64,000 nucleotides of DNA. Origin: an uncultured Acidobacteriota bacterium (GTDB lineage: Bacteria; Acidobacteriota; JAQAZP01). The stretch covers positions 3,452,850 through 3,516,849 of the forward strand of contig CAWIIB010000009.1 of assembly GCA_963836075.1 (NCBI GenBank), given 5' to 3'. Shown in pieces: positions 26,840 to 50,035 of this stretch (position 1 is its first letter; the number at the start of each line of letters is the position of its first letter). The position numbers were made by a program, and so were the translations under genes. The notes below the pieces were generated by a model, which saw only the letters and a program-made list of their open reading frames with translations, had not been told where the DNA came from and ran no database searches.

Positions 26840-27901
26840 TCACCTCTTGAGCAGCAGCTGCGGCAGAGCGGAGAGGGCGCCGGCGCCCACAGCGGTGAGG
26901 GCCAGCTGTTTGAGCAGGAAGAGGCGGATCGCGCCCGGCACCCCGAATATCCGTGCGGCGTGAGCCACGAAGCGCCGCCAGAGCATCAGCAGCAGCAGCT
27001 GCTGCAGGACCAAAGCCGCCGCCATGGGCAGGGGCCGGAAGGGCAGGGCGGCGACGATCAGCCAGCCGAGGCCGCTCAGAGCGATGGAGAGCGGCATGAG
27101 AGCCCGGTCATACCCGCCGTCGCTTCTCCATTGTCGAGGAGTCCGGGAACGGATCAGGGCGAATACCCGGCTTTTGACGTAGTAGTTGCGCCAGAATTTT
27201 CGCAGGCCGAACCGGCTGTTGTGGCTCATCCGCGCCGCTGACGCCAGCAGGGTCGCCCGGCCCGCGGCCCGCAGGCGGTAGCCCAGGCCGAGATCCTCCA
27301 CGGTGGCCCCGCCCAGGGTCTGGTCGAAGCCGCCCACCGCCTCGAGGGCCGACCGGCGGACCAGAGCGCACTGTGAGCCGAAATTGGTCGGTGATCCGTC
27401 GCCGGCTTCCAGGTAGGTGAAGGCCGAGAAGCAGGTGGTGAAGTGGGAGAGCCACCCGCCGGCGAGGTTGCGTTCCCGATACACGCCCACCGCCGCGGCG
27501 GGGCCTGCCCCGCCAAGTGTGTGTACGAGCCGGGGCAGGGTATCCGGTTCCAGCACCACGTCGCTGTCGGTGAACAGCAGCAGCTCGCTGCCGGCTTCCG
27601 CCGTTCCCAGGTTTCTGGCTGCTGCCGCGCCGCGGCCCTCGGGCTGCCGCAGGAGACGGCAGTTACCCCCGTCGGCGATGAACCCCTCCACCTCCCGGGC
27701 TGTACGGTCGGTGCTGCCGTCATCCACCACGATGATTTCGGCCAGCAGCGCCCGGCTGGCGTGCAGCGAGTCCAGGGTGGCCCGAATGGTGGCGGCGCCG
27801 TTGCGCACCGGTATGATCACTGTCACCTGGGGCCGGCCTTCGGCGGCCGCTTCCCGAATCCCGCTGCCCGGTGTGCTGCTCTGGTCGGTGGACTGTCCCA
27901 T
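26840..27901 (-). CDS. Glycosyltransferase family 2 with C-terminal TM helices
   Basis: Motifs VIIPVRN, VDDGSTD, ARNLG, FTDSD and GGFD...ED. Confidence 0.88.
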   Translation of the reverse strand: MGQSTDQSSTPGSGIREAAAEGRPQVTVIIPVRNGAATIRATLDSLHASRALLAEIIVVDDGSTDRTAREVEGFIADGGNCRLLRQPEGRGAAAARNLGTAEAGSELLLFTDSDVVLEPDTLPRLVHTLGGAGPAAAVGVYRERNLAGGWLSHFTTCFSAFTYLEAGDGSPTNFGSQCALVRRSALEAVGGFDQTLGGATVEDLGLGYRLRAAGRATLLASAARMSHNSRFGLRKFWRNYYVKSRVFALIRSRTPRQWRSDGGYDRALMPLSIALSGLGWLIVAALPFRPLPMAAALVLQQLLLLMLWRRFVAHAARIFGVPGAIRLFLLKQLALTAVGAGALSALPQLLLKR

Positions 27902-27975
27902 GGCGCAATGGTATACCAGCCGCGGCCGGGTTGGCCAGATGGGCGTTCCGCCGGGTGGTTTCTTTGATTGCGGGG

Positions 27976-28016
27976 AAAAAAGGTGGCGGGAGGAGGTCAG
28001 GCCGGCCTCCTCCCGC
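27976..28016 (-). terminator. Intrinsic terminator on the minus strand
   Basis: An 11-bp GC stem (GCGGGAGGAGG/CCTCCTCCCGC) followed by CACCTTTTTT. Confidence 0.7.
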
Positions 28017-28204
28017 TCTCACACAATACCTTTCGGCATTTCCCGGACCCGTTTCGGGCGAATGTACCAAGTCCGCCCCGAGGCCGGGCATCCGGTTACC
28101 AGTGGATGAGGGGTAAACATCCCCGGTTCCCGGGTTTGTTGTGTCAACCCGGGAACCAGCAAGGAAGCAACCAGTGACCGGTGTATCTCACAACGTTTGT
28201 TGCC
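27976..28204 (-). ncRNA. Candidate sigma54-dependent structured small RNA or leader
   Basis: Bounded by a sigma54 -24/-12 site and a terminator, and made of consecutive hairpins. No family recognised. Confidence 0.5.
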
Positions 28205-28214
28205 CCGGATATAT

Positions 28215-28230
28215 CGCAATCTCCATGCCA
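28215..28230 (-). promoter_or_regulatory. sigma54 promoter (leftward)
   Basis: The minus strand reads TGGCATGGAGATTGCG (GG-N10-GC). Confidence 0.72.
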
Positions 28231-28380
28231 GCGGCCGCAGCAGATTCTGATGGCCACAAGTTGTTTGTATGCAGCAGATAAAAAATCAGCTGCTCTGGCC
28301 CGGGTTCCGCGGCGCTGCTCGGGAGATTACAATAGTGAAACTCAGAGTGTCCAAAATGGTAACTCTCGTTGATACCTGGA

Positions 28381-28409
28381 TTGACTCCCCATCGGGGCGG
28401 CCCTATAAT
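28381..28409 (+). promoter_or_regulatory. sigma70 promoter upstream of the moxR-bat operon
   Basis: TTGACT-N17-TATAAT. Confidence 0.7.
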
Positions 28410-28555
28410 TTTTCGGCTTCGGTCCGTTTTTGATGACAAACAATGTCAAAATGGCATGGGCCGGAATGCCGCCTGGAAGGACGGGCCAGGGTGTCAACAG
28501 GCGTAACCTTTGTTATTGCAGCAATATAAAGTCCGTCAGGTGCCGGTTGAAATCC

Positions 28556-28571
28556 TGGCATCGGTTTTGCT
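28556..28571 (+). promoter_or_regulatory. sigma54 promoter of the moxR-bat operon
   Basis: TGGCATCGGTTTTGCT (GG-N10-GC). Confidence 0.75.
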
Positions 28572-28670
28572 ATTTCCAGTAAAGTTCACCCGGGATTGTG
28601 CCAGGATGGCGGCCGGCCCGCTGCCGGCGGCCAGTGTCAAAATACCAGCGGGGAGGTCATGGGCCCGAAA

Positions 28671-29650
28671 ATGGACGTTCGAGAAATCAACGAGAAAGTC
28701 AAGGAAGAGAGCGCCTTTGTGGAGTCGGTGTTCAACGAGGTGCGCAAGGTCATCGTCGGCCAGGAGTACATGCTGGAGCGGATGCTGATCGGGATGCTCA
28801 GCGGTGGCCACATGCTGCTGGAGGGGGTGCCCGGCCTGGCCAAGACCCTGTCCGTCAGCACCTTTGCCCGCATCGTGGATACCGGGTTCAAGCGGATCCA
28901 GTTCACTCCGGACCTGCTGCCCGCCGACCTCATCGGCACCATGATCTACAACCAGAAGGACGGGACCTTCACCCCCAAGAAGGGCCCGATCTTCTCCAAC
29001 ATCGTGCTGGCCGACGAGATCAACCGCGCGCCGGCCAAGGTGCAGAGCGCGCTGCTGGAGGCGATGCAGGAGCGGCAGGTCACCATCGGCGACACCACCT
29101 GGCCACTGGCCGAGCCGTTCCTGGTGCTGGCCACCCAGAACCCCATCGAGCAGGAGGGGACCTACCCCCTGCCCGAGGCCCAGGTGGACCGCTTCATGCT
29201 CAAGCTGAAGATCGACTACCCGGGCAAGCGCGAGGAGCGGCTGATCCTCGACCGGATGACCGGCCTGGAACTCCCGTCGGTGAACGTTGTGGTCAGCCCG
29301 GAGGACATCGTCCGCACCCGGCAGACGGTGCACTCGATCTACATGGACGACCGGATCAAGGACTACATCGTCGACCTGATCTTCGCCACCCGTGCGCCGG
29401 CCGACTACGGGCTCTCCGCGGAGCGGCTGATCCAGTACGGCGCTTCGCCCCGGGCCACCATCTACCTCACCCTGGCCTCCCGGGCCCACGCCTTTATCAA
29501 GGGGCGGGGCTACGTGACACCGGAGGACGTCAAGGCCGTGGGGCCCGATGTCCTGCGCCACCGGATCATCCTGACCTACGAGGCCGAGGCCGAGGAGATC
29601 ACCACCGACCACATCGTGGGCCAGGTGCTCGACCGGTGGAAGTGCCCTGA
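28671..29650 (+). CDS. moxR: MoxR family AAA+ ATPase (true end VEVP-stop is in a shifted frame; alternative start 28659)
   Basis: Motifs LEGVPGLAKT, RIQFTPDLLP, DEINRAPAK, ATQNPIEQEGTYPLPEAQ and GASPR. Confidence 0.93.
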
Positions 29651-50019: not shown

Positions 50020-50035
50020 TGGCATTGATATTGCT
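50020..50035 (+). promoter_or_regulatory. sigma54 promoter of regulator 2
   Basis: TGGCATTGATATTGCT (GG-N10-GC). Confidence 0.8.

Follow-up and report, generated by a model that had tools for sequence, protein, structure and literature searches.

The 64-kb stretch of DNA analysed here (the window; G000:C9:3452850-3516849, from a genome of 6.2 Mb and 63.9% GC) carries on its minus strand a segment that, taken as a whole, is best explained as a free-standing sigma54-dependent small RNA gene whose product pairs through a seed with the leader of a pilin mRNA, a reading to which we assign a probability of roughly 0.55. According to this model, sigma54 RNA polymerase and an enhancer-binding activator would transcribe an RNA of ~229 nt (28204-27976), and a strong intrinsic terminator would end the transcript. 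The RNA is predicted to fold into two hairpin-rich domains that leave a 13-14-nt CU-rich stretch, GUUGCUUCCUUGCU (28171-28158), single-stranded in a multiloop, and this stretch would act as a seed: in the major type IV pilin mRNA, whose leader is ~50 nt long, it would pair with leader nt +15 to +28. This mRNA is itself presumably transcribed from a sigma54 promoter next to pilS-pilR. Pilin translation would then likely be repressed, or the stability of the mRNA altered, probably with the participation of Hfq; as the RNA would add a second sigma54 input, pilus production would thereby be tuned post-transcriptionally. We are highly confident that the locus specifies a real, discrete, sigma54-transcribed non-coding RNA, we favour the view that this RNA acts in trans through the CU-rich seed, and we place the chance that the pilin mRNA is its direct target somewhat under even. 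We infer the start site, the dependence on sigma54 in vivo, the action in trans, the direction of regulation and the involvement of Hfq. The initial annotation of this DNA had proposed an unannotated sigma54-driven structured RNA at this place, and that proposal is supported by the absence of Rfam matches, by the limits of conservation, by the presence of rpoN and of genes for enhancer-binding proteins, and by contigs from RNA libraries.

The RNA locus sits in a 770-bp divergent intergenic region. On its downstream side a gene for a GT2 glycosyltransferase begins at 27901 on the minus strand (Pfam PF00535, E = 6e-31), and on its upstream side a plus-strand MoxR-DUF58 gene, with a conserved start codon at 28672, heads a Bat-like operon (DUF4381, BatA/VWA). 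A 931-aa minus-strand ORF across this operon is without a Pfam match and was set aside as spurious. The region had been described as apparently empty, but on the plus strand it is a divergent promoter region common with the MoxR/Bat-like operon. Ahead of the MoxR start, a sigma70-like TTGACT-17-TATAAT (28381-28409), a near-palindrome ATGCCAnnnTGGCAT (~28445-28460) and a perfect sigma54 site TGGCATCGGTTTTGCT (28556-28571), all on the plus strand, are kept in the window genome and in two congeneric species, and this suggests that the Bat-like operon may have two promoters, or else that a ~250-nt leader or a second RNA may be made from 28381-28672 on this strand. MoxR (AAA_3) and DUF58/VWA form a single 678-aa ORF in the window genome (28596-30632, plus strand), and a separate MoxR of 337 or 326 aa is found in the two congeners (L003:70-1083; L002:88-1068); the 678-aa ORF is either a real fusion or an artefact of assembly or frame. 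On the other side of the region, 8 nt separate the GT2 ATG from the end of a conserved CTGGTATACC upstream of it (extended -10-like TGnTATAcc; 27902-27925, minus strand) in all three species, which suggests, judging from the motif, that the GT2 mRNA may be leaderless and have its own promoter. The GT2 start region, CATGGGACAG, is conserved across the three species, and among the protein matches to GT2 in genome contigs only one, from genome G002, is close (73% identity), the rest being at most 40% identical, and the scan revealed no wider synteny.

The proposed start of the RNA depends on a sigma54 -24/-12 site, TGGCATGGAGATTGCG, present as originally read at 28230-28215 on the minus strand, in which GG and GC stand at consensus spacing, and the C of its TTGC at 28216 agrees with the predicted start near 28204. 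Five sigma54 matches with at most one mismatch occur in the window against 3.3 expected, so that the promoter match alone is not rare; genome-wide, TGGCAY-N5-TTGCN is found 76 times against ~22 expected. We nevertheless judge the promoter to be real because, in the three-species alignment, its identity is 100% (21/21), whereas the 99 columns upstream are only 35-57% identical. From the predicted start to the U-tract identity is 80-90%, and in the spacer between the terminator and GT2 it is 36-52%. Conservation is thus bounded by the promoter on one side and the U-tract on the other, which argues for a discrete unit of promoter, RNA and terminator.

The genome holds one copy of rpoN (PF04552: 1 match, 226.9 bits), about 38 strong enhancer-binding-protein (bEBP) genes among 43 PF00158 matches, and a gene for Hfq (G000:C1:139560). 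The same PF00158 search of the genome found no bEBP gene adjoining the RNA locus. Further upstream of the promoter, some 115 to 155 nt ahead of the predicted start, a block at 28358-28320 is kept in all three species and the DNA between it and the promoter has diverged; the block is a candidate binding region for the activator. No exact inverted repeat was found within it, and no second copy elsewhere in the genome. Three bEBP genes are clustered at ~48.7, 50.5 and 52.6 kb of the window (C9:3501593, 3503402, 3505433), at a distance of 20-25 kb from the RNA. Positions 50020-50035 (plus strand) hold a perfect sigma54 site.

At the other end of the unit, the 11-bp GC terminator stem of the initial annotation is present as claimed, formed by GCGGGAGGAGG (28016-28006) with CCTCCTCCCGC (27996-27986) and followed by TTTTTT at 27981-27976. 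Folded alone, the terminator hairpin has energies of -23.3 (window genome), -28.4 and -21.5 kcal/mol in the three species, and its pairs are kept across species in 12 cases out of 12, two of them via G-U. A simple terminator scan passed over this minus-strand terminator because the T-run begins 4 nt past the stem. The positions of the RNA, of its parts and of the elements around it are collected in the table.

Table. Features of the sigma54 RNA locus and its surroundings, in window coordinates.
Feature	Position	Strand	Basis or remark
GT2 glycosyltransferase gene	26840..27901	-	Downstream neighbour in 3/3 species; possible read-through target
Predicted non-coding RNA, 229 nt	27976..28204	-	From sigma54 start to end of U-tract
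Intrinsic terminator: 11-bp GC stem, then CACC + UUUUUU	27976..28016	-	Sequence read
33-aa ORF of the initial annotation, judged non-coding	28019..28120	-	Frame and stop vary among species
Domain 2: GNRA hairpin, and extended stem (28088-28041) with UGGUACAUUCG in its apical region	28025..28088	-	RNAalifold
Domain 1: long-range helix 28183-28170 with 28103-28089	28089..28183	-	RNAalifold
Invariant CU-rich stretch CUGGUUGCUUCCUUGCUGGU	28155..28174	-	20 nt; proposed seed 28171-28158; multiloop of consensus fold
5' hairpin, GCAAC/GUUGU stem	28189..28203	-	5 invariant pairs in consensus fold; outside the cover of RNA-library contigs
Sigma54 promoter block CTGGCATGGAGATTGCGATAT (-24 GG, -12 GC)	28211..28231	-	21/21 bases identical in 3 species
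Conserved block GTTACCATTTTGGrCAC..TGArTTTCAcTAtTGTAAT	28320..28358	-	About -115 to -155 from predicted start

The predicted RNA is more stable than expected from its composition, with a minimum free energy of -113.2 kcal/mol against -92.7 +/- 4.85 kcal/mol for 200 dinucleotide shuffles (z = -4.2), none of which was as stable. The consensus fold obtained with RNAalifold from the three species comprises 78 pairs in 10 helices, and 95.3% of its cells are paired, against 33-50% when the partners are slid by 1-3 columns; pairing is weakest in helix 7, in Domain 2, where 85% of cells are paired. Most of the hairpins that had been listed are there, namely the perfect 12-bp stem GGTTCCCGGGTT/AACCCGGGAACC (28157-28125), GGGGATGTTTACCCC, CCCGAAACGGG and ATGCC-GAAA-GGTAT, the exception being CCGGTCACTGG, which had been taken for a local hairpin and which in the consensus fold is the 5' arm of the long-range helix that closes Domain 1. 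This helix encloses the seed, the 12-bp hairpin (28157-28125) and a hairpin GGAUG/CAUCC (28122-28104) with a CCCCUC loop; a compensatory change is seen in 2 of its 14 closing pairs and in 1 of the 13 pairs of the 12-bp hairpin. In Domain 2 the GNRA hairpin AUGCC-GAAA-GGUAU occupies 28040-28025 on the minus strand. The unit is kept from the promoter to the U-tract in three species. Covariation is not significant (4 of 78 pairs compensatory, with 60 of 500 shuffles doing equally well), because the comparison comprises only three species and one near-duplicate metagenome contig, too few to establish it. As a minor observation, the octamer TGGTACAT is found both in the apical loop of Domain 2 (28061-28068, minus strand) and in the -24 element of the pilin sigma54 promoter (L069:9124-9131), a coincidence that is probably due to chance.

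That the RNA belongs to no known family, as had been suspected, agrees with the absence of any gathering-level Rfam match in the 64-kb window (Rfam 15); at E <= 10 the segment from 27700 to 28600 returned only miRNA or CRISPR-repeat noise of at most 22 bits. When 60 relatives were searched at the DNA level, the two congeneric species alone gave full-length homologs, at 90% and 81% identity; six other matches are fragments of 23-40 nt and not real. A covariance model of the RNA body scored 216, 208 and 176 bits, with one copy per genome, in all three genomes of the class that were searched, and gave no real match in the other 148 of the 151 sampled genomes of the phylum; a 20.6-bit match in one phylum genome was rejected as an artefact of a GGAACC repeat. 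When metagenomes were scanned with the 20-nt invariant stretch, seven loci were returned, of which one was real (L016, nearly identical to G002). The RNA is so far known only from one uncultured, sediment-dwelling genus of three species. It is a new family of a known kind, the class of sigma54-driven base-pairing sRNAs being already well known, and it could be submitted to Rfam.

Contigs from public sequencing runs are consistent with transcription of the segment. Parts of the stretch are held by 20 runs from 12 studies, four of which were examined at contig level; contigs are assemblies that carry no strand, level or exact ends, and DNA may be present in an RNA library. The metatranscriptome X14 yields a 186-nt contig wholly within the RNA (28002-28184, 0 differences) and, in addition, a diverged allele resembling G001 (28092-28182), and the metatranscriptome X20, from a different study, yields a 173-nt contig that likewise lies wholly within the RNA (28012-28183, 3 differences). 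These three RNA-library contigs end at 28184, 28183 and 28182 without a loose end, while the DNA contigs X1 and X2 continue, and we take the shared stop at 28182-28184 as a weak hint of an RNA end. This stop directly follows the 5' hairpin on its 3' side, 20 nt past the predicted start, and could correspond to a processing site between this hairpin and the body of the RNA, or to an assembly effect. The 3' ends of the contigs (28002, 28012) fall within the terminator hairpin and are probably assembly effects, because the DNA contigs also break there (28016-28024). The RNA-library contigs leave 27850-28001 and 28185-28350, that is, the GT2 start and the promoter side, uncovered, which is not evidence of absence.

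The hypothesis that the RNA acts on another transcript was approached through its seed, which had been picked out, as the longest stretch both invariant and unpaired, before targets were sought. The CU-rich run at 28174-28155 is the joint-longest invariant run (20 nt), and the unpaired probability at its centre is at least 0.9. In a search of the genome the sole 14-nt perfect complement outside the locus was AGCAAGGAAGCAAC at G000:C9:2569159-2569172, which occupies -35 to -22 relative to the ATG of a pilin gene, 8 nt ahead of its Shine-Dalgarno (SD) sequence GGGAGGG. The gene encodes a 145-aa prepilin (N_methyl and T2SSG; leader MLRRKDKG/FTLIEL), is located 4 kb downstream of pilC-pilS-pilR (PilS-type kinase and sigma54 response regulator), and has a sigma54 site, TGGTACATGGATTGCA, upstream of it; the complement lies ~15 nt past the start predicted from this site, in a leader of ~50 nt. 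Apart from this site, the longest seed complement at those candidate starts of 4560 crude ORFs that have an SD in front was 10 nt. Shuffled seeds attained 14 nt in 124 of 5000 cases (2.5%) in the 889 kb of crude start regions and in 1169 of 5000 (23%) genome-wide, and the full 229-nt RNA has ~25 other chance matches of 14-17 nt in the genome, mostly from stems. For the interaction a net energy of about -13 kcal/mol was calculated, made up of -23.3 for the duplex and of +5.9 and +4.4 for opening. In an RNAduplex scan of the 4560 crude start regions, G-rich G:U duplexes prevailed, and the scan, being non-discriminating, was dropped as evidence. A possible sibling sRNA at G000:C1:851731, which has a 12-nt copy of the seed, was rejected for want of a sigma54 site nearby.

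The block of the pilin leader that contains the complement, GGCGTCATGGTAAGCAAGGAAGCAACACAG, is invariant in all three species, and variation is seen in the 6 nt that precede it and in the 17 nt that follow. The other two species share, without change, the first 30 nt of the leader, complement included, in a pilin 5' region that is highly conserved overall (88% mean column identity). When each species' own RNA and leader are combined, the same duplex of 14 bp, a bulged A and 4 bp is predicted; as seed and target are both invariant, the pairing is without compensatory support. Among 401 genomes of the phylum the leader block is found at 0 mismatches in the same three only, a co-occurrence that tracks phylogeny and thus offers no independent support. 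With regard to the direction of regulation, the duplex would lie at the 5' edge of the region that we take to be covered by the 30S subunit, and the SD is not masked by the target block in the minimum-free-energy fold of the leader; for these two reasons repression or altered stability appears likelier than activation.

The initial annotation had left the choice between an sRNA and a leader of the GT2 gene. The independent sRNA, which now has a candidate target, is the better supported of the two, and the GT2 leader stays as a live, if rather unlikely, rival. In that case the sigma54 promoter would drive GT2, the RNA and its terminator would form an attenuator or a riboswitch-like element that controls read-through, and any short RNA released would be a by-product. 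The gene is indeed on the same strand, 74-110 nt past the terminator in all three species, and a multi-helix architecture with a GNRA loop would be in keeping with such a function. In two of the three species, moreover, the prediction pairs the G-rich 5' arm of the terminator with the CU-rich stretch while the 3' arm is still to be transcribed, a possible antiterminator, but the prediction for the third species lacks this alternative pairing, and the terminator is strong and fully kept. The poorly conserved spacer (see above) likewise speaks against a leader, except for a conserved block, TGGTATACC, 8 nt before the GT2 ATG, which looks like an extended -10 of GT2 itself and from which we infer a leaderless mRNA. 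Confinement to one genus would be unusual for a ligand-sensing aptamer, and a cis-acting leader leaves the conserved complement in the pilin leader unexplained.

Also unlikely, in our estimation, is that a real sigma54-dependent RNA works other than through the pilin leader, as a protein-binding RNA, a sponge or an sRNA with another target, the 14-nt match being coincidental. Most base-pairing sRNAs are shorter and less structured than this RNA, which counts against the base-pairing reading, and the size and heavy structure of the RNA, together with several invariant loops (UACCCCUCAUCCA, UGGUACAUUCG and the GAAA hairpin), would suit such a role. The match to the pilin leader has a chance frequency of 2.5% under a liberal definition of start regions, and other genes, too, have 10-nt seed complements at their SD (G000:C9:551588 is one example). 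Against this, the pilin match exceeds the next best by 4 nt, and the pilin leader block is invariant exactly across the complement in all three species. GlmY and CrcZ sequester proteins via repeated motifs, and these are not seen here: a reading of the sequence revealed neither repeated GGA-loop motifs nor long CA-rich motifs of the CsrB/CrcZ type in the RNA.

A small-protein or dual-function transcript encoding the 33-aa peptide (28120-28019), which had been raised as a further option, is highly improbable: although an ATG-initiated ORF stops just ahead of the terminator in the window genome and its first 6-7 residues are alike in the three species, the stop differs in all of them (33, 40 and >55 aa), a 1-nt deletion and a 1-nt insertion ~40 nt apart scramble ~13 codons in one species, the ATG lies inside a conserved hairpin stem without a spaced SD, and substitutions track the pairing pattern and not codon positions. 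No Pfam match was found for the enclosing 66-aa ORF. We treat the RNA as non-coding because the frame and stop of the ORF are not conserved and because indels of 1, 2, 3 and 4 nt are distributed along it in the three-species alignment.

Read as a free-standing base-pairing sRNA, the element invites comparison with Qrr1-5 of Vibrio, which are sigma54- and LuxO-dependent Hfq sRNAs. It resembles them in having an intergenic gene of its own, bounded by a -24/-12 promoter and an intrinsic terminator, in carrying a conserved single-stranded seed, here predicted, for mRNA leaders, and in being confined to a single lineage. It differs from them in that there is no match in sequence or structure (no Rfam match), in being about twice as long and present in a single copy, and in belonging to another phylum. 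GlmY, CrcZ and Pxr are other non-coding RNAs of 100-400 nt under the control of sigma54 and bEBPs. Pxr of Myxococcus is lineage-restricted, as is the RNA described here, but the Pxr model scored 16.6 bits, on the opposite strand, against a cut-off of 80 bits. Acido-1 and Acido-Lenti-1 are structured RNA motifs of Rfam from Acidobacteria whose function is unknown, and neither was among the Rfam matches between 27700 and 28600 even at E <= 10. In the body of literature searched, no paper unites Acidobacteria, sRNA and sigma-54.

A precedent for the proposed target is provided by the Arp sRNA, which represses translation of pilA in Acinetobacter (PMC12338739). The likeness to Arp of Acinetobacter baumannii lies in the target, the major type IV pilin mRNA, which here is proposed; the difference lies in the site, as Arp covers the SD and the first 17 codons (PMC12338739), whereas the complement found here extends from -35 to -22, upstream of the SD.

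If the free-standing sRNA does act on the pilin leader, pilus production would be under one transcriptional and one post-transcriptional enhancer-binding input, and regulated read-through into GT2 might couple pili with surface glycans. The fullest form of this idea, which we put forward tentatively, is that the RNA would be the first riboregulator of an uncultured class of a single genus, that its seed would clamp the 5' leader of the pilin mRNA so that two bEBP inputs converge on pili, and that GT2 read-through might add a link to glycans. The question bears on how sediment bacteria tune type IV pili and hence adhesion, motility and DNA uptake. For a lineage known only from metagenomes, a clearly bounded sRNA gene with a candidate target offers a hypothesis that is testable in a heterologous host.

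Finally, the scan for seed complements brought to light a ~100-nt repeat outside the window, which holds …CATTGCCAAAGCAACCAGCGCGCCGG…GCTTGCCGCTGATGTGG.GCGTTA… and is present in at least 10 copies, spaced 0.5-5 kb apart, at G000:C9:577820-601166 and C9:1273847-1275460. Its layout resembles that of the attC-type repeats of a gene-cassette array.
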